DNA from: a virus
Direction: 5' to 3' (one strand)
Virus record (IMG/VR): IMGVR_UViG_3300008107_000029
Span: 32,833 to 96,832 of that record
Length of the DNA: 64,000 nt
Shown: positions 1,477-40,548 of the stretch, piece by piece
How positions within the stretch are numbered: position 1 is the first letter of the stretch
Layout of the letters: each line of letters begins with the position of its first letter
Notes under the pieces: model-generated
The model's database searches: none
Seen by the model: only the letters and a program-made list of their open reading frames with translations
What the model was told of the DNA's origin: nothing
Translations under genes and position numbers: made by a program

Positions 1477-1761
1477 TTATCCTATCTTCTCGATTATCTT
1501 ATTCCATGTCTCTGAAGTTTTATGGGCATTCTTCATATTATCTGGCTTTCCATCTGCCAAATAAACTCCACCCCAAACTCCCCAGGACATAGTGTTAGTT
1601 CCATATTCAAAGCACTGCTTTATAACAGGGCAGTTAATACAAATCTTATCTGTAGAGGCAGCAACTTCTTTGTCTTCCTCATATTTATCAAAGAATTCAT
1701 TTACTTCAAGGTCCTGACAAATTCCTCGAACTTGCCAATTAGTCTCTTCGAATAGATTCAT
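1477..1761 (-). CDS. whiB: WhiB family Fe-S transcription factor
   Basis: W...C-x-C..C PV..QC and GVWGG motif. Start placed at ATG 1761 (MNLFEETNW) rather than 1836. Confidence 0.92.
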   Translation of the reverse strand: MNLFEETNWQVRGICQDLEVNEFFDKYEEDKEVAASTDKICINCPVIKQCFEYGTNTMSWGVWGGVYLADGKPDNMKNAHKTSETWNKIIEKIG

Positions 1762-1954
1762 TAGGAAGGTTCCATCCGTCCTTTGTGGGGACATATCTAT
1801 TCGCAAAGCCCCATACGCCCTTGTAACGCATTCCATCTTTGCTAAACTCTGCAGCCTTGCTTCTCTTAAACTTTACAATTGTCCAGCCGTCCCAATGTAG
1901 GTCCTTAGACTTTGCAACGATTGCTTCTGCTTGTTCTAACTTGTTAATCTTCAT
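1739..1954 (-). CDS. hypothetical protein
   Basis: ORF track 1739..1972. ATG at 1954 has AAGGAG upstream and is the likelier start. Confidence 0.7.
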   Translation of the reverse strand: MKINKLEQAEAIVAKSKDLHWDGWTIVKFKRSKAAEFSKDGMRYKGVWGFANRYVPTKDGWNLPNESIRRD

Positions 1955-2345: not shown

Positions 2346-3047
2346 CTATCTATATTCTTTTCTATTCCACCATAGATTTTTATATCTATTGACGAAAGAT
2401 GTGTTGTGCTTATTAAGCATTGTTTGTTGATAACCTCTGCTTTCATCTACTGAGTACTCAGCAGTAAACGAATCTCTTTTAAATGGCACAACGTGACATA
2501 TTGGAGTTCCGTAAGGGATTACACCAGCGAAATCTTTTCTGATGTGAAAAGGAAAGTTAATGACTAAAGGAAATCTGTCAGTGTCTACAAACCCTGGAAT
2601 GATCTTAAATGGAAGATCTTCACGATGTGGTGGTTGAAAAAACATTGTACTGTAACCATCTGGGGTAGTAATTCTCCAAGGATTAATAAACTTTAAAACA
2701 GTATCTTCATAACCATACGGCACTGGATATCCAATTACCTGATCGTCTGTATGTCCCTCTACTGCTTTAGTGTCGTAATCCATAGACCAGGAAACATCTA
2801 CGTTACCATGCCCATCTCTTTTAACCAAGATGTCCGTCCATGTTTTTATTACATAGCCAGTAGACAATGAATCCAAAATAGGAACACATTTTTTCATAGT
2901 AGCGTTCATTCCATCAAACTTACCACCGATGTAAGTATCCATAGACTTATACCAATCTGGAAGGTTCTTATTGGCAGGCTCTGGTTTTGGTGCAGCCTCA
3001 GACAACAGTGGATCAATTAAAGAAAATTGTATTTTTTTACTTGACAT
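2346..3047 (-). CDS. conserved beta-rich phage protein (DUF6065-like / dUTPase-like fold, uncertain); paralog of 24456..25211
   Basis: P.PA...LPDWYK, KKCVPILD...GY, PW.ITTP.GYS..F..P, G.VDTD, GTP...V.PFKR motifs shared with 24456..25211. Confidence 0.65.
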   Translation of the reverse strand: MSSKKIQFSLIDPLLSEAAPKPEPANKNLPDWYKSMDTYIGGKFDGMNATMKKCVPILDSLSTGYVIKTWTDILVKRDGHGNVDVSWSMDYDTKAVEGHTDDQVIGYPVPYGYEDTVLKFINPWRITTPDGYSTMFFQPPHREDLPFKIIPGFVDTDRFPLVINFPFHIRKDFAGVIPYGTPICHVVPFKRDSFTAEYSVDESRGYQQTMLNKHNTSFVNRYKNLWWNRKEYR

Positions 3048-4308
3048 ACCTTTTATTCCAATGCAAAGAGTTTTCTTGTGTAGAAAATGAGTACATTGAA
3101 ATCATCGAGTTAATTAAATTAACAAGACTATTTTTTGACCTATGTGTCTTTGTCTTAAAGACTAGACCTTCCCAATCTATACCAAAGAAAGTATTAAAAT
3201 CAAAGATTAATTTTTCATCTTTTGAATCAATAAAAGAATCTACAATCTCTTTAATTTCTTTATAAGATTCGGTATCTTTAAAGTTTGAATCTTCATATAC
3301 CTTTGTTTCTTCCCAGTCAATGCCCGTCCTTGTAAGGAACAGCCTTGATCCATAGTGCTTATAGATGGGTGTCCATCTCATACTGTAGAAAGAAAAACCT
3401 TCTTTAAAAAACTTTAAAGTAGTTTTAAAGTTGTCTTCATGAATTGATAAAGTCTTTTCCGATGCTTTATTAATTCTATTAATATCTTTGGCTTTGCCAA
3501 ACAAAAAGTATAAAGATAAAGCATTTGTTTTTGCTATAACTTCATTCTCTTTAAACTTAAGTCCATAGTACAATGGGAATCCATTATCAAATAAAAAGTC
3601 TTTGTGCATTTGTAATTCATCATAGAATTCATCTAACTCTTCATCTTTTTGGATTCCTTCTGTGCTGTCTAGAAATCTAACCATAGTAGAGTTTTCCATA
3701 ATGCCAGAACTTGGATACCTTGCACCGTCATACTCTTCTCTTTGTAGAGTAGTCATTTCTTTATGATTCATGTAAAACTTAAAACCTTCTGTTTCGTTGT
3801 CATGTGGCAGATAGGCTCTTGGAAATGCAGTAAGCAAAACCTTTGAATCAAACTCAGCAAGTGACTGATATTGTTTAAGTAGAACAATGTCCCAGTCTGG
3901 ATCAAAACGCATATCAGATCCTATAGTCATGAAGTATGTTTCATTATTGTATTTAGAGTCTGTAAACATTCTTAGTTTGCCATAGGTATCATAGATATAG
4001 TTTTTTTCTTTGCCGTCCAAAGCAACATAAGAAGTAGGAACGTATGAAATTCTTAAATTTGGATGATTGATTGGTGGCTCTAGACCTATATAGTTTTGAA
4101 ATCCATGACCAACTATTCCTATAGTACAACTAACAAATAGGTTTCCTGGATCTCTTGCATTGTTATATAAACTTTCAATAGTGTCATAAACACCTTCGTT
4201 TTCTCCAATAATGCTTACAAAGATAGAAGAAGTTTTTCTTTCGTCAACTAAGTATTCAGGGTCAAAGTTTGTTCCCTCAAATGAGTTTGTTCTGGTTGCT
4301 ATGTTCAT
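3037..4308 (-). CDS. divergent GT60 (Skp1-hydroxyproline GlcNAc-transferase, Gnt1-like) glycosyltransferase
   Basis: SIFVSII...TIESLYNNA.DP.NLFV; YFMTIGSDMRFDPDWD (family pattern Y.LQIDSHMRF...WD); C-terminal ED...F.EGF.FY.....IY.HY. Confidence 0.7.
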   Translation of the reverse strand: MNIATRTNSFEGTNFDPEYLVDERKTSSIFVSIIGENEGVYDTIESLYNNARDPGNLFVSCTIGIVGHGFQNYIGLEPPINHPNLRISYVPTSYVALDGKEKNYIYDTYGKLRMFTDSKYNNETYFMTIGSDMRFDPDWDIVLLKQYQSLAEFDSKVLLTAFPRAYLPHDNETEGFKFYMNHKEMTTLQREEYDGARYPSSGIMENSTMVRFLDSTEGIQKDEELDEFYDELQMHKDFLFDNGFPLYYGLKFKENEVIAKTNALSLYFLFGKAKDINRINKASEKTLSIHEDNFKTTLKFFKEGFSFYSMRWTPIYKHYGSRLFLTRTGIDWEETKVYEDSNFKDTESYKEIKEIVDSFIDSKDEKLIFDFNTFFGIDWEGLVFKTKTHRSKNSLVNLINSMISMYSFSTQENSLHWNKRYVK

Positions 4309-4829
4309 TATCTAGTCTTTTCTTTGTAGTTAAAATACCAATGGTCTGGCTCTGCATAATGTAAGAAGAGCATTAATACTTTATTTCCTGGTGTAAAAGG
4401 TGGTCTGCCATGAAATTGATCTTCACCGTACATTGCAATAGCCTGATTGGCTTTAAGAACATAGTCTTTACCTTCAATAGTAACAGGCCAAGGTTCTTTT
4501 GAATACAGGCAAACGTCGTAACTATAGGTGCATGCATTGCTATCATAGTGAAATGGCAAAGACGATTTGTCGTTTTCGTATAGAGCAACGGTAGCATAAG
4601 TTGGTAGCAATGTCTCACTCCCAAAATCTTTTCTTGCTTTGTCAATGTTAGTTATGAGTATATTGGTTATATAAGGAGAATTATGAAACCATCTATTCAT
4701 ATTATCATTTGACCAAAGCCACTCTTGGTTAAAATTAAATGTATTAATCTTGTTTATAATAGAAGTATAATCTGATTGCTTGAAAAAATTATCAACAATC
4801 CAAGGATCTTTAACCTTACTGTTGACCAC
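4308..4829 (-). CDS. 2OG-Fe(II) oxygenase
   Basis: LPFHYD (HxD), CTYS, YGEDQFHGR (distal His), LFLHY. Confidence 0.85.
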   Translation of the reverse strand: MVNSKVKDPWIVDNFFKQSDYTSIINKINTFNFNQEWLWSNDNMNRWFHNSPYITNILITNIDKARKDFGSETLLPTYATVALYENDKSSLPFHYDSNACTYSYDVCLYSKEPWPVTIEGKDYVLKANQAIAMYGEDQFHGRPPFTPGNKVLMLFLHYAEPDHWYFNYKEKTR

Positions 4830-5481
4830 TGAACCTGTTTCCTTCCAATAAAAATTCAGTTCCAGGCTCTCCTAACCACGTTACAACAGCATATTTAGTT
4901 CCAGAAATTACTGGCTTTGCTTGATGTAGGTATGCATAGTCTGAAGGGAACAAAGCAATAGAAGGTGTTTGTGGATGAATATTTACATCGTGATGTACAA
5001 AATAGGTAGAACCGCCTTCATACTCACTTGGATTTAAATACATTACTGCTGAAAGAGTTCTGTATTCATGTCCTGGTCCTCTATCGCAATGTGCTTTGTA
5101 TTGTTTTCCTGGACCGTACTTTAAAAGTTGTAGGCCTTCGTCAAATGCAATATGTAAATCAAATGAGTCACAATAGTCTCTAACGCTTGCTCCAAGTCTG
5201 TCTCTAATTAATTCTGTTGCCGTTTGCATATCTTTTGCAGTCTTAGAAACAATGTCACAAGAGTCAATTGCCATCACTTGGTTTGACCTTACAGTACCAC
5301 CGTCGTGTCCCTGACCTACTTTTGCACCCTGAAAAGATACTTGACTTGTTACGTCTTGATCTATTGCTTCGTATGCTGCAATAATTTCTGCAGCCTGCTC
5401 TTTAGTAAAGATGTCATTGTATATTGCAATGGCTCCACCAAAAATATCCTTGGTTACTTCCTTTGGCATATCTTTAATCAT
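4816..5481 (-). CDS. prolyl 4-hydroxylase-like 2OG-Fe(II) oxygenase
   Basis: VRSN; QLLKYGPGKQYKAHCD; RTLSAVMYLN; EGG.TYF; HQAKPVISGTKYAVVTW. Confidence 0.92.
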   Translation of the reverse strand: MIKDMPKEVTKDIFGGAIAIYNDIFTKEQAAEIIAAYEAIDQDVTSQVSFQGAKVGQGHDGGTVRSNQVMAIDSCDIVSKTAKDMQTATELIRDRLGASVRDYCDSFDLHIAFDEGLQLLKYGPGKQYKAHCDRGPGHEYRTLSAVMYLNPSEYEGGSTYFVHHDVNIHPQTPSIALFPSDYAYLHQAKPVISGTKYAVVTWLGEPGTEFLLEGNRFSGQQ

Positions 5482-5490
5482 TTTATTCCC

Positions 5491-6102
5491 TTATCTCATA
5501 TAGGATAGGGAGATTGTCCCTATGCCTTTTTCTTTCTCGTACAACTCTGAATCAATATCTTTACCACCGTGAAAAGCAGTAAAGAGACTTAATCTATAAT
5601 GACTCAGGACTGGGTTGACTGAGTGCGTATACATAAAGTCTGCTGGTAATAATAATATTGTACCACCTTTAGGTTTGTATATCAAGTCTTCAAACTGATC
5701 AAATTTAATACTTCCACCCTCGTAATCGTCATTAAGAAAAACATAGCATGCTATCTTTCTTGTAAATGGAAGATAATCTATTTTATCATTGATAGAAGAA
5801 GATGCATTTAGGTTAATATTTTGAATTCCAGATCCTGGATTCATTACAAAAAATTGATACTTTTCTTGCCATTGTAGGGTATGAATAGACTCTTTGTATA
5901 AATCACAATAAGAAACCAAGCACTCTAGCACAGTCTTTTGAAGTTTTTCTAATTTGTAATTAATTTTTTTATCGGAGGATATGATTCTATTAGACTTTAA
6001 TTCAAGTGGAGCCAGTCCATCTTCACCAATAATTAAATCTTCAACGGGAAATTCTACAATTCCTGGGGCAAGAATGTTATACTTCAAATCTTGGTGCCTC
6101 AA
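5491..6102 (-). CDS. P4H-like 2OG-Fe(II) oxygenase fold protein lacking HxD
   Basis: RKIACYVFLNDDYEGG.I.F and YTHSVNPV...R present; HxD position reads NINLN. Confidence 0.75.
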   Translation of the reverse strand: MRHQDLKYNILAPGIVEFPVEDLIIGEDGLAPLELKSNRIISSDKKINYKLEKLQKTVLECLVSYCDLYKESIHTLQWQEKYQFFVMNPGSGIQNINLNASSSINDKIDYLPFTRKIACYVFLNDDYEGGSIKFDQFEDLIYKPKGGTILLLPADFMYTHSVNPVLSHYRLSLFTAFHGGKDIDSELYEKEKGIGTISLSYMR

Positions 6103-6586
6103 TTTCTGTGTCTTTGTTTTCTACAACAGTCTCTTTATAAACAATTAAAGATTTGTTATACAAGAATCCATTGCTATCATAAAGTTTAATGTAATATTCT
6201 CCAAAGGTTTTTGGAGTAAAACGAACTACAAACCTAATGTCTCCTTCTTTTTCTAAAGGATACTCCTCTACTATTTGAATATTTTTTGGATCATCCATAT
6301 CTACTAAATGAAGTTCAATTCTTAAATCTTCCATTTTTTCATAAATTAACCATTCATTTAAATAATAAAGTTCAATTTCTTCTCCTAAAGGAAATGTTTC
6401 TTTTTCTAAAAACACAGTGTTTGTTTCTGGAATGTATACAATTTGAGGCTCTGATGGGTCTTGAAGATATAAATCAATTAAATCAGATTTACCTATAACA
6501 ACTTGTGAGCATTCTGATTGCTGTGCTTTAAATAGAATATCCTCGTCAAGGGTTCGTCCTTCTGGAACGTAATAGATTAATTCCAT
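6077..6586 (-). CDS. hypothetical acidic protein
   Basis: 169-aa ORF overlapping the oxygenase start. Confidence 0.7.
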   Translation of the reverse strand: MELIYYVPEGRTLDEDILFKAQQSECSQVVIGKSDLIDLYLQDPSEPQIVYIPETNTVFLEKETFPLGEEIELYYLNEWLIYEKMEDLRIELHLVDMDDPKNIQIVEEYPLEKEGDIRFVVRFTPKTFGEYYIKLYDSNGFLYNKSLIVYKETVVENKDTEIEAPRFEV

Positions 6587-6588
6587 TA

Positions 6589-7659
6589 TTACACCAATAG
6601 TTCTTTGATAGTTCCTGCTTCATGCCCAGTAACATCAAGTGCTACGGATGAAGGTCTTACAAATTGAGAGACTAGGAGGATTACTCCACCACCTGTTTGG
6701 TATGCCATTGCAGATGAGTTGTAGTATCCAGTTGCATAAACTGTTCCAAATCCAACCATCTTTCTTGCAGAAACTACAACAACTCCACCACCTGGTTGAG
6801 TTCCGTTTCCTGCACCACCACGTAATGGCAGTGGGACTGTTAAAGATCCACCAAAAGCATATCCATTAATAGCATTCATTGGTAAGTTATAGTACTCAGG
6901 ACCACCGTTAGCAACCACTGGAAGGCTACTAGCATAGCCAAGACCATCTCCTCCTAGACTATTTGATACACTAACCTCAGACCCTCCTAGAAGTGATCCA
7001 ACACCACTAAAACCATTCTTAAGTCCAATACTTGTTGTGGCTTGGTTGGCAATTGCCGAACTAAAGGTAAGGATATTTCTTACAAACACCCTATACCCAT
7101 TAGTGTTTACGTGTACGCCTGGGGCAATAGTAAGATTACTATAATACATATCTCTAGTAAGATCTGTGTTTGCTGAGATTGTAACTGTTCCGTCTTTTCC
7201 AGATCCGTAAATTGAATCTGGAATGATATTAAAGTCGTATGTTGCTTGTGTCAGCCTGGTGATTGTTCTAATCTGATTGCCCTTTGCAGCATTAAGGCCG
7301 TCAAAGTAATAGTAGTTTACTGGTGTAGATGAGTTTGGCTGTATAGTTATTTTTCTAGCAGTTGCTGCGTTAAATCCAGAAGCATATGCTGCATAGTTTG
7401 CAACCAAAGTATTGTTTAAGAAATACTTAATTCCATATGCAGAACTCAAGGCACTTCCAGTGCTGTCTGCTACTGTTCCAATACATATTGGATGGCTTGC
7501 GTTGCTAGCATTGTCTTGGTTAATTGTATATGTATCTCCAACTGCCAATGTTAATACTGGGGCTGTAACTGAATTTAAAACATAGTTTGTTGAATAAGTA
7601 GTTGTCTGTGTAAAAGCAGATGATTCTTGACTAACTGATCCAAATTGCGTAATAGGCAT
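6589..7659 (-). CDS. glycine-rich virion fibre/adhesin-like protein
   Basis: IYGSGKDG.VTI...LTRDMYY.NLTI domain paralogous to 7659..9332; GGGVVVV polyglycine motifs. Confidence 0.7.
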   Translation of the reverse strand: MPITQFGSVSQESSAFTQTTTYSTNYVLNSVTAPVLTLAVGDTYTINQDNASNASHPICIGTVADSTGSALSSAYGIKYFLNNTLVANYAAYASGFNAATARKITIQPNSSTPVNYYYFDGLNAAKGNQIRTITRLTQATYDFNIIPDSIYGSGKDGTVTISANTDLTRDMYYSNLTIAPGVHVNTNGYRVFVRNILTFSSAIANQATTSIGLKNGFSGVGSLLGGSEVSVSNSLGGDGLGYASSLPVVANGGPEYYNLPMNAINGYAFGGSLTVPLPLRGGAGNGTQPGGGVVVVSARKMVGFGTVYATGYYNSSAMAYQTGGGVILLVSQFVRPSSVALDVTGHEAGTIKELLV

Positions 7660-9332
7660 TATTTAACATCCTCCTCATTCTTAATAATTATAACACTTCC
7701 TGCTGTAGCGTATCCACCATCACCTGTACCTGCAGCAGATCTAACTTCAATAGTAGAAGGAATATTGTCTTCAGTTACTAGTAAAACAACTCCACCACCA
7801 CCTGCATATCCAATAGTTCCTGGAGTTCCTGGAAGTCCAGCAGTAATAGATCCTCCTGCACCACCTGCTCCTCCTGCTCCACCAGGACCACCCTCAGCAT
7901 ATACTGAAGGAATAAATGATGTTGACTCTGGCTGATATGCTACAAAGAAAAATGAATATTGAGTTGGTCCTTGTCCTACTTGACGAGACTCTGTGTTGCT
8001 TCCAAAGTTTGTATAAGATGCAGCAACTTGTCTTTGTGTAGTAAATGGAAATGGGTTAAAAGATCCAGGGTTTCCTGGGGTTGGGGAGTTTCTTCCAGTT
8101 TGTACATACGACCATGGCTGTCCAGGCTGAAAAAATGAAAATGGGTTGCCTGGTTGAAAGAATGAAAATGGGTTTCCAGGCTGAAAGAATCCACCACCTC
8201 TTGGAAATCTAACAAATCTTCCTGGGTTTGTTCCAAAAACTGTTCTTCCAGGGTTTGTTCCAGAAACAGTTCTTCCTGGAAAGACTCCAAAGATTCCTCT
8301 AGACCAAGCGTTGCCTGGAGTTGGAGCGTTTACATAAGAATATCCTGGTGTAACTGCTGGAGTTACTTGAGTATAGGTATAGTTAAATGTAACAGAAAAT
8401 GGTTGTTGATAAAATTGTGTAACTACTGTTGGTGCATTGTATCCATATGCCAATACATTGTAGTTATATCCTGCTGCATTTACTTGAGTTCTTGAGAATT
8501 GAAAAAAGTCTGGGGCCTTTGCTCCTGTATTTCCTGGTGCACCTGGATTACCAACACTTCCTGCGGTTCCTTCACCTGGTAAAGGTAATGGTCCTGGAGA
8601 CTTTCCGTCAGCACGAATAATTCCAGATCCTATAATTTTTCTTGCAGAAATAACAACTACTCCACCACCTGGACCTCCGTCTCCTCCAAGTCCTGCAGCA
8701 CCTCCAAGCCCTCCAGTTCCTAAGTTTCCTGGAGCACCTGTGTTTCCTGGGGATCCTTTTCCACCTGGGGCACCCACTGTGTTTGTTCTAGATGTAGGAC
8801 TTAAATTTCCTGGTGCACCTGGAGAACCTGCAGGGGCAGGCTGTGCAACTCCGTCTGCACCTTTGTTACCTGGTGTACCTGGTTTTCCACCAGATCCACC
8901 TTGAAGTGTTCTAAGTCTATTTAATGCTGCATCAAATTTATATGCAACAATTGCTTGTGAAAAATTATAAAACTCTGCTTCTCCAAAGAAGTTCTCACCG
9001 TTATTAAGACCACCAGATCCACCAAGAGTATCAGATGCTTTGACTCCCGAAGCCCCACCACCAAAGATAGTTCCTGCAGTTACAGTGTCAGCGAGTCTTC
9101 CGATAACAGAAGTGGCGTCTGCCATTGTTAATGTGTCTTTAACAAAAACTCTAAATCCGTTTGTATCTAATTGTACGTTTGCTAAAATTGTAAGATTGTT
9201 ATAGTACATGTCTCTATTCAAAGATATGTTTGAAATAACAGTGACATCGCCATCTGTTCCTGGTCCATAAATCTCAAGGCCACCCTTACGGGAAGCCAAG
9301 ACAACAGGCTCTGGAACTCTTACATCAGACAT
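7659..9332 (-). CDS. Gly/Pro-rich (polyglycine/collagen-like) fibre protein with aromatic repeat insert
   Basis: G-X-P/G-X-X runs, GGGVVVI motifs, ~200-aa F/Y/N/P/Q/T-rich insert. Confidence 0.75.
   Translation of the reverse strand: MSDVRVPEPVVLASRKGGLEIYGPGTDGDVTVISNISLNRDMYYNNLTILANVQLDTNGFRVFVKDTLTMADATSVIGRLADTVTAGTIFGGGASGVKASDTLGGSGGLNNGENFFGEAEFYNFSQAIVAYKFDAALNRLRTLQGGSGGKPGTPGNKGADGVAQPAPAGSPGAPGNLSPTSRTNTVGAPGGKGSPGNTGAPGNLGTGGLGGAAGLGGDGGPGGGVVVISARKIIGSGIIRADGKSPGPLPLPGEGTAGSVGNPGAPGNTGAKAPDFFQFSRTQVNAAGYNYNVLAYGYNAPTVVTQFYQQPFSVTFNYTYTQVTPAVTPGYSYVNAPTPGNAWSRGIFGVFPGRTVSGTNPGRTVFGTNPGRFVRFPRGGGFFQPGNPFSFFQPGNPFSFFQPGQPWSYVQTGRNSPTPGNPGSFNPFPFTTQRQVAASYTNFGSNTESRQVGQGPTQYSFFFVAYQPESTSFIPSVYAEGGPGGAGGAGGAGGSITAGLPGTPGTIGYAGGGGVVLLVTEDNIPSTIEVRSAAGTGDGGYATAGSVIIIKNEEDVK
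8109..8279 (-). repeat. two facing sets of 27-nt (9-aa) tandem repeats
   Basis: PGRTVSGTN-PGRTVFGTN-PGRFVRF, then PRGGG, then FFQPGNPFS-FFQPGNPFS-FFQPGQPWS. Confidence 0.9.
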
Positions 9333-32395: not shown

Positions 32396-32934
32396 TACTC
32401 TGCCCTTGCTGGATAAACTTGAATAATCTCTGCCTTGCCACTGTAATCTGCAAGTCTCTTTCTAACTTCAGATCTGCACTTATCGCAGTCAGCAACTACA
32501 TCTCTAAGGATAGATGCTAAGACTTCTTGCTTTTCTTCTGTCTCTGCAATCATAGATGCGACTTCATTGTTTTCTAGCAAGCCTGCTTTTTGCAGCATCT
32601 CAATTCTTTTTCCTTCAATGTCAGCAACTAGTTTGATCGCAGTGGCTTTTGTTCTTAAGTCTCCTGCTTGATCTGCATCGTCAATTGTTCTCCATGCTTC
32701 TTTAATTAACATTGCATAGTGCTGGTCTGCAGCAGATAAAGCCTCTCTGGCACGTTCGTGAACAGTACTGTTATTGCTAACAATTGCTCTCCACTCATTC
32801 AAAGCCTCAACAACTTCGTTTCTTGACATATTAAGGGCTTTGCCAATTGCAAGTGGGCTTGTGTTGCCTCTGAGGAATTCCTCAACAACCTTTGCAATAG
32901 TTTCTGAACGTTCTGCTACTTCAATTTCACTCAT
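32395..32934 (-). CDS. probable terminase small subunit
   Basis: N-terminal HTH-like segment, helical body, translationally coupled to terL. Confidence 0.55.
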   Translation of the reverse strand: MSEIEVAERSETIAKVVEEFLRGNTSPLAIGKALNMSRNEVVEALNEWRAIVSNNSTVHERAREALSAADQHYAMLIKEAWRTIDDADQAGDLRTKATAIKLVADIEGKRIEMLQKAGLLENNEVASMIAETEEKQEVLASILRDVVADCDKCRSEVRKRLADYSGKAEIIQVYPARAE

Positions 32935-36976: not shown

Positions 36977-37297
36977 TCATCCCAGGACGCCGTGCATTTT
37001 TGGACGATCTTTATTGATATTTGCTTTTTCTTCTAAGATGTCATGTAATGAAAGACTAACTACATTAGCATCCTTTAGTCCTTGATAAAGATCTAAAACT
37101 CTAATCAGGATGTCTGCTAATTCTTCTACTACTTGCTGCTCACCTTTTTCTTTTCTAAGTGCCTCTAGCACTTCAGTTACTTCTGAATGGACCATCGCTA
37201 ACTGCTTTGCAAAGAAAACAAAATCTTGTTCATAGTTCCAAAATCCTTTTTCTACAGCAGTTGAGTGTAGGTCTGATGCAAGTTTATCTAAGTTCAT
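36977..37297 (-). CDS. MazG-like NTP pyrophosphohydrolase
   Basis: HSEVTEVLEA.R, EELADILIR.LD, K..IN..R...HG. Confidence 0.85.
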   Translation of the reverse strand: MNLDKLASDLHSTAVEKGFWNYEQDFVFFAKQLAMVHSEVTEVLEALRKEKGEQQVVEELADILIRVLDLYQGLKDANVVSLSLHDILEEKANINKDRPKMHGVLG

Positions 37298-40200
37298 GAT
37301 ATCTCCTTTAATATTAAACTATCTTCTTTTTCTTGTAGCACTGGAGTTACTCTAGATCCTGGCTTCATTTTAACCATCGCTGCAGCATACATTGATGGGA
37401 AGACAACAACAGAATATAACTCTTTATCTGAATCTGCTAAAACGACAGTTGCCATCTTGTCGCCTTTCTTTGTTTTTCTACCTGCAAATGATACCACATA
37501 ACGCTCATCGTCTGCCATAGGAATAGTCTTAGAAGACAAGTACTTAACAAAAGTATTATCTTTATCTTTAAGATCATCTGTAGTTATGTGTTCCATAATT
37601 CTATTGTCACAGACAAGAACGATATGCATCTTTCCTGTTTCTATTGAAGAGTCTTCTCTATCAAACACCCCAACAGTTCCAGTCTTGTCTACGAACTCAA
37701 CTCTAGACCAGCCGTCTCCTCTTTTAATTGATTTAGCCAAAGCCATCATAATAAAAGAACCTTTGTCTGAGTACTCCTCAATAGGTCTAAAATAGGCCTG
37801 TAGCCACCTTGGGACGTCTGAACGGAACTCTGGTATGCCAAGATACTCATAGTAGTAATCACTTTCATTACCAATCCTAGGATTGTCGTGGAACGAAGCA
37901 CCACCGACTTTGTTTAGGGCATCCAAGGCTCTGCTATTAATGCCAGATCCTTTTGTTCCAACTACATCTTGTACGTGCCTGTAAGAACTAAAAGGTCTTT
38001 GAGCAATAATCTTGTTAGCAATGTTTTCTGAAATAAACTTAACACTACCTAGACCAAATCTAATTGCCTTACCTTCAAGTTTAAAATCAATGTCGGACTC
38101 GTTAATGTGTGGAAGCCTAACCGTAATCCCCATACGCTTTGCCTCAATAAGATACTCAGTACGGGCATCCTTATCCTTTTCATTTTTAAGAATAGAATAC
38201 ATAAACTCTTCTGGGTAATAACGCTTTAGCCATGCAGTCCAGTATGACAATGTTGAATAGGCTACAGCGTGAGACTTGTTAAATGAGTATCCTGCGTGTG
38301 CCTCAAAGTCATGCCAAAGTGCTTTTGCTGCATCCTCTGAAATGTGTTGGGAAGCACCCTTTACGAATCTATCTTTAAACTGATCAAATTCTTTAGCGTC
38401 TTTCTTCTTACCAATAATCTTACGAACCTTGTCAGCCTCAGACATTGACATACCACCCAGATATACACATGCTTGCATAACTTGTTCCTGATAAAGGATA
38501 CAGCCGTAAGTGTCTTTTGTAAATGGCTCCATAATTTCATGAACATAGGTAACTGGCTTTCTTCCTTTTTTACGAGCAATGTACTCAGCACCAATTGTGT
38601 TCATAGCACCTGGACGAACTAACGCATTGGATGCAGACAGTTCATCTAGATTATATACACCCATCTTAATTAACAGGTTTGTATAAGGAACTGCTTCTGC
38701 TTGAAACACTCCCTTTGTCAATCCTGCAGAAAGATCTTGATAAACCTCTGAGTCATCTAGTGGAAGTTCCAAAAGATTAATCTTCTTGTTATATCTTTCT
38801 TCAACTATGTCAATAGTATCTTTTAGCACTGTTAGTGTTTTTAATCCTAAAACGTCTAACTTAATAAGGCCAATATCTGCAGCCTGATCCATATCAACAG
38901 CAACTACTGGAACACGCTCATCGCTTTGTGCGTCTTTTCTAGTTTCAATAGGAGCATACTTACTAATCTGGTCTTTTGCAGTTACAATACCTGCAGCATG
39001 CATTCCAGTTCCACGGATTCGACCACGGAGTTGATTAGCATATTCAACAACCTCTGGATACTTTTCTCTAAAGTCTAGGGTCTGCTTGCTTGCAATAAAT
39101 TCATCCCATGTGTCTGTAAACTTTAGGGCCTTGTCTACTTCAGCAATTGGAACCTTAAATGCTCTTGCAACATCTCGAACTACACCTTTATCTTTAAAAG
39201 TTACAAAGGTTGCAATTGATGCTACGTTTTTGTACTTGTTAGTAAGATATTCTTTTACCTCACCACGACGACGATCTTCAAAGTCTGTATCGATATCTGG
39301 AAAGTCATTACGATCTGGGTTAATAAATCGGAAGAAGAGAAGACCATACTTGATTGGGTCAATGTCAGTAATGCCAAGGGCATAACAAACTAAGGACCCT
39401 GCAGCAGATCCACGACCTGGACCAACAAGAATGTTATTGTTCTTTGCCCAGTTAATCATATCTGCCACAACTAAGAAGTATCCAGAAAACTTCTTGTCTG
39501 AAATAATCTTTAACTCTGAGTTAATTCTTTTAAGGTAATCTGGGTTGCCACCAAAACCTCTATTTGCTAAACCAGTTAAAGTAAGTTCCTTTAGTGTTTG
39601 GTCTGCGTCATTCTTTGGAATTGGAAGAAGGTCTAGATTTTGAACAACCTCGTAAGATCCAATCTTGTCAGTAATCTCTAATGTGTTCTCAAAGATATCT
39701 GCTCTATCAAGACCTTGGTCAATCATTCTTTGCTTTGTCTCGTTGTATCCATCTAGCCAGATGTCTAAATCTTTAAAGGACATCTTTCTTTCACCGTATA
39801 GGTAGTCTAATCTTTCGATCATATCTTTTACCTTACGGCTACTTTCAAAGGTTGCTTCCTTACGAGCATTTGGATGTGTTCCAAGGATAAGCATAATCTC
39901 TTCTGCAATAGCATCTTCTGGTTTTGCAAAGTGACAGTCTAATGTAACAACCGACTTTACACCAACCTTGTCAGCCATATCGATTAAGGCTTTGTTAAGA
40001 AGGTATGTATTGTGTGGCTGAACTTCCATATAGAAGTCATCCTTAAACATATCTTTAAACCAATTTGTGTATTGCAGGGCGAGGGACTCATTGCCTCCTT
40101 GAATTGCATTAGCAATAATGCTATTCATACATCCAGACAAGATAATTAATCCGTCCTTATGCTTTTCAAGAATCTCAAAATCCATTCTTGGCTTATTGAA

Positions 40201-40548
40201 GAATCCCTCGTCCCATGCAATCTCTGATAATTTACCAAGATTCTCAACACCCTTTGCATTCTTAGCAAGAACGATAAGATGGTTATAGATCTTTTCGTCT
40301 GGTGTTCTTTCTTTTTTAGACCTACGGTCATTTCTATCGTTTGTAAAGTATGCCTCTACACCAAGGATTGGCTTTACCGAAGTGCCCTTGGTTGCTAATA
40401 GAAACTCACGATGACCTGACAATGTGCCATGATCCGTTAAGGACATAGCAGTCATGCCAACTTCTTCTGCACGTTTTACATATTCGGCAGGAGAAGAATA
40501 GCCATCTAATAGACTATAGTAAGAATGAGAATGATGGTTGTGAAACAA
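37294..40548 (-). CDS. dnaE: DNA polymerase III alpha subunit
   Basis: H.HS.YSLLDG, TDHG, GPGRGSAAGS, PDIDTD, HAAG, YSFNKSHA. Confidence 0.97.
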   Translation of the reverse strand: MFHNHHSHSYYSLLDGYSSPAEYVKRAEEVGMTAMSLTDHGTLSGHREFLLATKGTSVKPILGVEAYFTNDRNDRRSKKERTPDEKIYNHLIVLAKNAKGVENLGKLSEIAWDEGFFNKPRMDFEILEKHKDGLIILSGCMNSIIANAIQGGNESLALQYTNWFKDMFKDDFYMEVQPHNTYLLNKALIDMADKVGVKSVVTLDCHFAKPEDAIAEEIMLILGTHPNARKEATFESSRKVKDMIERLDYLYGERKMSFKDLDIWLDGYNETKQRMIDQGLDRADIFENTLEITDKIGSYEVVQNLDLLPIPKNDADQTLKELTLTGLANRGFGGNPDYLKRINSELKIISDKKFSGYFLVVADMINWAKNNNILVGPGRGSAAGSLVCYALGITDIDPIKYGLLFFRFINPDRNDFPDIDTDFEDRRRGEVKEYLTNKYKNVASIATFVTFKDKGVVRDVARAFKVPIAEVDKALKFTDTWDEFIASKQTLDFREKYPEVVEYANQLRGRIRGTGMHAAGIVTAKDQISKYAPIETRKDAQSDERVPVVAVDMDQAADIGLIKLDVLGLKTLTVLKDTIDIVEERYNKKINLLELPLDDSEVYQDLSAGLTKGVFQAEAVPYTNLLIKMGVYNLDELSASNALVRPGAMNTIGAEYIARKKGRKPVTYVHEIMEPFTKDTYGCILYQEQVMQACVYLGGMSMSEADKVRKIIGKKKDAKEFDQFKDRFVKGASQHISEDAAKALWHDFEAHAGYSFNKSHAVAYSTLSYWTAWLKRYYPEEFMYSILKNEKDKDARTEYLIEAKRMGITVRLPHINESDIDFKLEGKAIRFGLGSVKFISENIANKIIAQRPFSSYRHVQDVVGTKGSGINSRALDALNKVGGASFHDNPRIGNESDYYYEYLGIPEFRSDVPRWLQAYFRPIEEYSDKGSFIMMALAKSIKRGDGWSRVEFVDKTGTVGVFDREDSSIETGKMHIVLVCDNRIMEHITTDDLKDKDNTFVKYLSSKTIPMADDERYVVSFAGRKTKKGDKMATVVLADSDKELYSVVVFPSMYAAAMVKMKPGSRVTPVLQEKEDSLILKEIS

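Follow-up and report, generated by a model that had tools for sequence, protein, structure and literature searches.

A hypervariable insert with balanced arms that appears to fold back on itself in a fibre-type protein of an uncultured phage

Introduction

Can a projection of a phage protein become longer or shorter and still keep its two halves in register? This question is raised by P0001, a fibre/adhesin-like gene on a 64,000-nucleotide stretch of DNA (the window) that corresponds to positions 32,833 to 96,832 of the IMG/VR virus record IMGVR_UViG_3300008107_000029. The record is 96.8 kb long and is estimated to be 85% complete. An earlier note on the window had proposed that a low-complexity insert of about 200 residues in this protein is one very long beta-hairpin needle, that its two arms expanded together on either side of a PRGGG turn, and that it is the most likely substrate of the adjacent oxygenases. 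In a comparison that took in more than 90 relatives, each step of gain or loss in one arm is matched by a step in the other, and the steps are in mirror order. It is likely that P0001 is a tail-fibre/adhesin-type structural protein with a projection of balanced antiparallel arms and repeat-driven length steps. The phage is uncultured and probably actinobacterial.

Host-recognition proteins of uncultured aquatic phages are mostly unannotated. A search of 5.8 billion protein clusters found 33 full-length homologs of P0001, all of them unnamed. Neither a Pfam scan at E ≤ 0.01 nor a PHROG search assigned P0001 to a family. The locus (megablast) and the protein (tblastn) had no match among 50,697 phage records, in searches with a low-complexity filter that may hide some matches. 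Relatives of P0001 recur in freshwater-type and marine metagenomes, also without a Pfam or PHROG match.

The alignment of the 33 homologs (A1) separates a conserved scaffold from a hypervariable insert. The scaffold is 50-80% identical, and a glycine at every third position is invariant in residues 146-224 and 255-270. The insert appears in A1 as APDFF followed by 161-227 residues for which no alignment from one subfamily to another is possible. After it come GGxGGxGG.., GLPGSPG, and GYAGGGGVVL, and then the conserved C-terminus. Insert length ranges from 161 to 274 residues among close relatives and is 208 residues in P0001.

Arm lengths across the homologs

The insert was delimited from APDFF to the first GGxGGxGG, and its arms were split at the sole conserved inner element. 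This element is VRFPR, RFPSRQFGG, or RNPARTFGG in one class (RxPxR..GG) and of the VRWR type in the other. It is present as a single copy per insert, at the midpoint, in nearly all homologs tested, while two have no recognisable motif. In the RxPxR..GG class, the length of the N-terminal arm minus that of the C-terminal arm (N-C) was exactly -3 residues in each of the 31 distinct sequences, which represent two lineages or more. The arm lengths (N, C) were (93, 96), (94, 97), (95, 98), (98, 101), (102, 105), (109, 112), and (111, 114). By simple arithmetic, the probability that a chance permutation would match seven distinct arm states is 1/5040. The arms of the VRWR class also co-vary (raw r 0.98, contrast r 0.97). 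Phylogenetically independent contrasts of N against C length were calculated for 63 distinct sequences from both classes, with a tree built from the scaffold only. The 62 contrasts gave r = 0.93, which was reached by 0 of 10,000 permutations.

The earlier note had expected repeat copy number to co-vary between the two arms, and had named independent copy numbers as the result that would speak against a hairpin. Measured as arm lengths, the copy numbers do co-vary. The repeat arms are 25 and 27 residues long in P0001 and P0002, 32 and 34 in P0003, and 34 and 36 in P0080, which is +7/+7 and +9/+9 relative to P0001. The repeat periods of the two arms are also equal, at 9/9 in P0001 and 7/7 and 4/4 in relatives.

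A 623-residue homolog is encoded in a viral contig (L018:7001-8872). Its insert is mirror-like, with ExR repeats and the centre INPFARNPARQFGGN, and its arms of 134 and 139 residues carry 11 + 11 [E/Q]xR units. The insert contains 24 Glu and 25 Arg. When residues are paired across the fold, opposite charges outnumber like charges by 11:0 for one choice of centre and by 11:2 for the geometric midpoint, and both values exceed all 500 within-arm shuffles. Several registers score well, since the repeats are periodic.

A metagenome scan identified a distinct marine subfamily (423-552 residues) with a scaffold of the P0001 type. Its insert has PGNNYSY/GYSY repeats, a centre HTHYHWH..INN..TG.YHYHY.H with HxHxH on each side of the turn, and TNYGSNP repeats. 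For 29 of the 31 distinct marine sequences, N-C lies between 1 and 3, and N spans 61 to 84 residues. Between L033 and L037, the GYSY/PGNNYSY and TNYGSNP repeat types are swapped to opposite arms, as would be expected if the two repeat types are pairing partners. Four marine proteins (L071, L074, L075, and L078; 527-552 residues) possess an extra domain of about 90-110 residues in the N-terminal region (..IKFSETSDGTHNSG..YYY..), and the balance of their inserts is unchanged.

Mirror-ordered insertions and deletions

Insertions and deletions (indels) were placed by pairwise alignment of each arm, anchored on the centre. From P0001 to P0003, there is a gain of 7 residues on the left at 8 columns from the centre and a gain of 7 on the right at 9 columns. 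P0003 and P0080 differ by paired indels of +2/+2. P0097 to P0092 and P0116 to P0032 each show -3/-3 at a distance of about 17-23 columns from the centre in either arm, and the residues lost are not equivalent. The clearest order is seen from P0026 to P0021. On the left there are changes of +2, -4, and -2 at 70, 20, and 8 residues from the centre, and on the right there are changes of -2, -4, and +2 at 11, 24, and 75 residues, which makes three pairs in mirror order. Equal size and sign together with reversed order are what antiparallel pairing predicts, and tandem equivalence or gene conversion would not give such a pattern. The compensated indels amount to a natural mutagenesis experiment that fixes the topology of about 200 residues beyond the reach of structure prediction.

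The substitutions between P0001 and P0002 are distributed in a similar manner. Mismatches are at 5.5% in the N-terminal domain, 45% in residues 273-325, and 52% in residues 433-480, and only 4 of 57 positions differ in the repeats and turn. When centres from 340 to 415 were scanned, the smoothed mismatch profile had its best mirror centre at 378.5 (r = 0.83), within PRGGG. This profile is supportive and not decisive, because of its broad peak and its autocorrelation.

Motifs and composition of the insert

The repeat units that had been read from the translation are all present. On the left arm are PGRTVSGTN (8253-8279), PGRTVFGTN (8226-8252), and PGRFVRF (8205-8225). PRGGG follows at 8190-8204, and the right arm has FFQPGNPFS twice (8163-8189 and 8136-8162) and FFQPGQPWS (8109-8135). 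The outer motifs NAPTPGN (8310-8330) and NSPTPGN (8070-8090) match one another. The insert lies between two Gly-x-x tracts (residues 244-272 and 481-514), in which Gly recurs invariantly with a period of three across the 33 homologs. Tandem Repeats Finder reported two arrays with a 27-nucleotide period, one at 8217-8276 (2.2 copies, 90% matches, score 99) and one at 8114-8190 (2.9 copies, 82% matches, score 112). In alignment A2, P377 is invariant and R375, G380, and G381 are at least 90% conserved.

The insert was also described as nearly free of Lys, Asp, and Glu. Residues 275-478 (204 residues) include two Glu, one Asp, no Lys, and no His. The most numerous residues are Phe (27), Pro (24), Gly (23), Thr (21), Gln, Ser, and Val (17 each), Asn (16), Tyr (14), and Arg and Ala (10 each). 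This composition is not a family rule, since the L018 insert is rich in Glu.

No long DNA inverted repeat was found in 7850-8550, where only matches of 12-20 nucleotides of the CCAGG/CCTGG type occur. The symmetry of the arms is therefore a property of the protein, as no inverted repeat in the DNA joins them. That the arrangement goes beyond chance is established by the homologs and not by the P0001 sequence alone.

A paralog without the excursion and the predicted structure

The gene next to P0001 encodes a paralog, P0262, that has the P0001 scaffold without either of its two excursions. By BLASTP, residues 149-284 of P0262 align with residues 20-148 of P0001 (41% identity, E 2e-18). Residues 289-311 align with 221-243 and residues 318-341 align with 507-530; the identity to the rung at 225-243 is 65%. 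The first Gly-x-x tract (residues 146-224) is missing from P0262, and about 8 residues stand in place of residues 244-510 of P0001, an excursion of 267 residues. The scaffold is thus complete without the excursion, and the points of entry and exit are adjacent because P0262 has only about 8 residues there. Adjacent entry and exit points force a fold-back topology at a coarse level. Fold-back is strongly supported by comparison, of this paralog and of the homologs with balanced arms, and not by structure prediction.

AlphaFold2 (AF2) was run on the monomer with A1. The mean predicted local distance difference test (pLDDT) score was 59, and the Gly tracts scored 80-89. Strands in residues 29-78 of the N-terminal domain, 225-240, and 515-551 were placed together at a pLDDT of about 80. 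A second run, for which the alignment was restricted to the subfamily, did less well (pLDDT 37) and left the centre unmodelled. In both runs the basal strands are mirrored, at 276-286, 289-298, and 302-323 on one arm and 433-454, 458-467, and 470-479 on the other.

Searches with the predicted structure gave leads to beta-helices. Foldseek against the PDB returned nothing below E 3.5. With VIA-align, the best neighbours were beta-helices (bactofilin 6ria, Z 8.0), and gp38 adhesins also scored (6f45_D, Z 5.8 with 116 residues aligned, and 9v85_C, Z 5.2); all of these values are within the noise band of the tool. A profile search of PDB chains matched only collagens and the collagen-repeat fibril 8zxl, over the Gly-x-y tracts. 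The fibril (E 5e-22) was rejected as a true relative, as the match is a compositional one to Gly-x-y.

Proposed organization of the protein

The core of P0001 would be a small single-chain beta-helix made of the N-terminal, middle (225-243), and C-terminal segments, and two excursions would leave it. The second excursion (244-510) would have a Gly-rich stalk on either side of the hypervariable insert 273-480, the halves of which would be antiparallel and paired along nearly their whole length. The fold-back point would be the conserved R-x-P-R-G-G-G motif. In the distal part, both arms consist of short tandem units (9 residues, or 27 nucleotides, in P0001), and slippage or recombination of these repeats may add or remove units in either arm. 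The variants that persist would be only those with an equal change in residues on both arms, at mirror-equivalent positions, and the length steps would keep the pairing.

Fold-back topology and arm balance are shown by the comparison of homologs. Pairing as beta-strands and a selective origin of the balance are further steps that we infer from it. A host-surface-contacting role is also inferred, because the insert is hypervariable and the gene is located in a tail-fibre module. If so, a simple rule is suggested by which a receptor-reaching projection changes length without refolding, and this could be of practical interest for the engineering of fibre length.

Several observations weigh against this organization or limit it. 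The balance is not absolute. N-C is 4 to 11 in the VRWR class and -5 in the L018 protein, and two marine sequences are unbalanced (L048, +15, and L068, +5). The latter may be transient slippage products or errors of short-read assembly in the repeats. Residues 326-430 have a pLDDT below 50 in both AF2 runs, and there is no confident model of the repeat core. In a flat ribbon of two strands, paired indels of odd length (3, 7, and 9 residues) would exchange the two faces, so that a geometry with kinks or bulges at Pro-Gly, or one that belongs to a higher-order assembly, is probable. The odd lengths and the Pro-Gly motifs that recur on each arm speak against a flat ribbon without interruptions. 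Finally, no part of the insert is better conserved than the tip motif, unlike what a variable site of receptor contact would show. This motif may be structural or may bind a conserved surface component, and specificity may lie along the arms. Of the long beta-hairpin that had been claimed, fold-back and the joint expansion of the arms are borne out by the arm lengths, the constant N-C of -3, and the mirror centre at 378.5. A single straight needle is not, as the basal arms are broken into three strands by AF2 and the core is below 50.

It is possible, on a tentative view, that the paired arms are packed into a compact beta-sandwich or solenoid, with one further layer for every pair of units gained. 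AF2 splits each basal arm into three strands with turn positions that are mirrored, and NPG and QPGN, which are turn-forming motifs, occur every 9 residues on the two arms. The tolerance of odd-length paired indels is also consistent with layers. However, the repeat core has no confident model to set beside this arrangement, and the mirror-ordered indels fit an extended ribbon equally.

Comparison with known systems

The closest topological analogue of the P0001 insert is the needle of T4 gp37 (PDB 2XGF), with outward and return segments in register. In gp37, the needle is the distal part of a fibre for host recognition; the chain runs to the tip and returns, and seven iron atoms along it are coordinated by His residues from the trimer (PMC6957217). 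The HxH-type motifs that relatives of P0001 have on both arms beside the turn recall these iron sites and make the analogy stronger. HxHxH is found only in the marine subfamily and in the His-rich relatives, and the insert of P0001 has no His. The two proteins differ in that gp37 is an interwoven homotrimer, whereas a single-chain beta-helix is predicted for the P0001 scaffold. They also have no sequence similarity in the profile search of PDB chains or by tblastn against the 50,697 phage records with the low-complexity filter on. In a limited literature search, no report was found of tandem-repeat length polymorphism in gp37 that is balanced across two arms.

P0001 may, with a rather low probability, fold back as a homotrimer in which three chains are interwoven into a six-strand needle like the gp37 tip and the Gly-x-y tracts are collagen triple helices. 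Most phage fibres are trimeric, and the Gly-x-y triplets match collagens by sequence. Some relatives have HxHxH flanking the turn or inserts with 21-27% His, which recall the His-iron sites of gp37 (PMC6957217). On the other hand, the AF2 monomer gives a single-chain beta-helix at a pLDDT of about 80 and Gly tracts at 80-89, the P0001 insert lacks His, sequence similarity to gp37 is absent, and adhesins of the Gly-rich gp38 type are monomeric (PMC12032242).

The gp38 adhesins of T2, S16, and PP01 (PF05268; 6F45, 9V85) have a beta-helix formed from their N- and C-termini, and conserved Gly-rich motifs frame their hypervariable host-specificity segments (PMC12032242). Their Gly-rich motifs make up a polyglycine-II sandwich. 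The predicted P0001 scaffold resembles this plan in outline, with structural matches to gp38 that are weak and within the noise band of VIA-align. The adhesins differ in having four short hypervariable loops (four-residue beta-turns) and five Gly-rich motifs, whereas P0001 has three Gly-rich tracts and one long paired insert. P0001 did not match the GP38 model PF05268 in the Pfam scan at E ≤ 0.01. An Atlas GP38 cluster at a feature score of 0.75 for P0001 is a lead only.

Collagen-like phage fibres (PF01391) share Gly-x-y with Pro at y, which P0001 has in residues 146-224 and 255-272, and P0001 also has a neighbouring gene of the prolyl 4-hydroxylase (P4H) type. They differ in that the P0001 tracts are interrupted by beta-helix rungs and the balanced insert is without a counterpart there. 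The Pfam Collagen model had no match to P0001 and was below threshold for P0100, at 16.4 bits against a cut-off of 27.2. Mtd of Bordetella phage BPP-1 and the other variable proteins of diversity-generating retroelements (DGRs) are likewise proteins of phage tropism in which hypervariability is confined to one region. P0001 differs from Mtd in that it has no Mtd_N and varies by substitutions and by gain and loss of repeats, and not by adenine mutagenesis of a lectin fold.

Residues 16-72 of P0001 (about 9117..9287 of the window) form a module, G.G.DG.V....DMYYNNLT....TNG[FY]R[VI]FVK, that has no Pfam model of its own. Many phage proteins share it, and of the 2,698 proteins that match the family profile at E ≤ 0.001, the majority of the weaker ones do so through this module. 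Mtd_N (PF18454) directly precedes this module in some distant relatives, including P0051.

P0001 appears to belong to an undescribed family of phage host-recognition proteins with a fold-back projection. Its distinctive, well-supported property is the balanced change in length that is driven by repeats.

P0128, P0130, P0132, and P0039 are distant relatives that share the scaffold and have inserts of about 205-216 residues with 21-27% histidine. These His-rich inserts may be a metal-binding version of the projection. Their arms, measured from the midpoint motif, are inconsistent at (101, 105), (102, 98), (119, 89), and (121, 90), with insert boundaries that are uncertain. A search with the insert of P0100 alone gave no further relatives.

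Gene layout and neighbourhood

The features of P0001 and of its neighbours are collected in Table 1.

Table 1. Positions of P0001, its segments, and neighbouring features. Positions are those of the window unless a contig is named, and residues are those of P0001.
Feature	Position	Strand	Description
P0001, fibre/adhesin-like gene	7659..9332	-	557 residues; open reading frame list and translation
N-terminal conserved domain, residues 1-145	8898..9332	-	Conserved block in A1; first rungs of the predicted single-chain beta-helix
Gly-x-x tract 1, residues 146-224	8661..8897	-	Collagen-like by sequence; first excursion off the scaffold
Scaffold rung, residues 225-243 (VVVISARKIIGSGIIRADG)	8604..8660	-	Invariant block in A1 (VVVISAR..IRADG); AF2 strand 225-240
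Gly-x-x tract 2, residues 244-272	8517..8603	-	Putative ascending stalk of the second excursion; invariant G255/258/261/264/267/270
Hypervariable insert, predicted to fold back, residues 273-480	7893..8516	-	About 208 residues; no subfamily-to-subfamily alignment possible
Basal left arm, residues 276-325	8358..8507	-	Three predicted strands (AF2, two runs)
Left-arm 9-residue repeats, residues 352-376 (PGRTVSGTN, PGRTVFGTN, PGRFVRF)	8205..8279	-	Copy number differs in P0003 and P0080
Turn PRGGG, residues 377-381	8190..8204	-	Part of the sole conserved motif of the insert (R375, P377, G380, G381)
Right-arm 9-residue repeats, residues 382-408 (FFQPGNPFS x2, FFQPGQPWS)	8109..8189	-	
Basal right arm, residues 431-480	7893..8042	-	Three predicted strands (AF2, two runs)
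Gly-rich tract 3, residues 481-514	7791..7892	-	GGx repeats, then Gly-x-x; putative descending stalk; invariant glycines
C-terminal scaffold rungs, residues 515-557 and stop codon	7659..7790	-	Conserved block; AF2 strands 515-520, 528-531, 546-551
Paralog P0262	6589..7659	-	356 residues; P0001 scaffold without either excursion; neighbouring gene
P4H-like 2-oxoglutarate (2OG)-Fe(II) oxygenase	4816..5481	-	PF13640, E 2e-15; possible fibre modifier
GT60-type N-acetylglucosamine (GlcNAc) transferase-like gene	3037..4308	-	PF11397, E 9e-11
Conserved gene block	2346..6586; L017:9324-12995; L031:5842-6567; L037:5907-6623	- (window)	

The closest solved structures to the oxygenase are of the Bacillus anthracis prolyl 4-hydroxylase (5hv0/3itq, E 5e-8), and collagen P4H alpha-2 was also matched. 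In 7 of 7 related loci examined (five viral and two marine, the latter with 2.5-kb flanks scanned), an oxygenase gene lies downstream of the fibre gene at a distance of 1.6-2 kb. The linkage of fibre and oxygenase is family-wide, as it is found in viral and marine loci alike. At L017, one of the five viral loci, GT60 and a DUF6065-like gene are also found downstream of the fibre gene. The order of fibre, scaffold paralog, small open reading frame(s), and P4H-like oxygenase (then GT60 and DUF6065-like where the flank reaches) is kept across subfamilies and holds at a fibre identity of only about 40-55%. The linkage provides a concrete candidate substrate for phage 2OG oxygenases, a group of enzymes that is poorly understood in marine phages.

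X-Pro-Gly is the classical P4H site. In the P0001 subfamily, 10-18 conserved X-Pro-Gly sites are present in the scaffold and collagen-like tracts, and 0 to 12 in the insert. The L017 fibre has one X-Pro-Gly in its insert and retains the enzymes. In the marine subfamily, the scaffold (254 residues) has about 0.4 X-Pro-Gly and about 4 Pro, and the insert has about 4 X-Pro-Gly and about 13 Pro. The insert is 9-12% Pro in all subfamilies and is the sole Pro-rich segment common to the oxygenase-linked members. These counts lend some circumstantial support, and no more, to the insert as the substrate of the oxygenase, which the earlier note had held most likely. In the P0001 subfamily, the collagen-like tracts are at least as good a candidate as the insert.

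It has also been considered whether the insert is a mucin-like platform, O-glycosylated on hydroxyproline, that is acted on by the co-transcribed P4H-like oxygenases and GT60, so that modification and not pairing sets its shape. This is unlikely. It would agree with the oxygenase synteny at 7 of 7 loci, with GT60 at the P0001 locus and L017, and with an insert that is consistently Pro-rich, but it leaves the exact arm balance and the mirror-ordered indels unexplained. The variable number of X-Pro-Gly sites in the insert (only one in L017) and the 10-18 sites of the collagen-like tracts also speak against it, and another protein of the module could be the substrate.

A bolder form of the fold-back organization would make P0001 an adjustable ruler. 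In this form, a single fold-back ribbon would change in balanced, quantised steps, its arms would be hydroxylated and O-GlcNAc-glycosylated by the phage P4H and GT60 enzymes, and contact with the surface would be made by the conserved Arg/aromatic tip, or in relatives by the HxHxH metal site. We regard this combination as improbable. If true, it would represent a virion-fibre modification pathway so far undescribed for phages.

The least probable explanation by far is that the insert is an unstructured low-complexity linker, as its composition and low central pLDDT might suggest, with a symmetry that came from a process in the DNA (palindrome, gene conversion, or DGR), but no inverted repeat joins the arms, they differ in sequence and in the residues deleted, the record has no reverse transcriptase or second copy of the region, and equal-size mirror-ordered indels lack an explanation at the DNA level. 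A DNA palindrome or inter-arm gene conversion was rejected, as no inverted repeat was found, the arms are unlike one another, and the residues deleted are non-equivalent. A DGR was also rejected for the record, in which PF00078 is absent and the 641-nucleotide region matches only itself (96.8 kb, 85% complete).

The genes around P0001 have weak PHROG matches to tail-fibre, minor-tail, and baseplate families, and a terminase is located upstream at 30.6 kb. The window also has a WhiB-like gene at 1477..1836 (-) (PF02467, E 8e-11). A DnaE-type DNA polymerase III alpha at 37294..40548 (-) is 57% identical to those of Streptomyces phages. Together with a GC content of about 39%, the WhiB-like gene and the DnaE-type polymerase suggest a phage of low-GC aquatic Actinobacteria.

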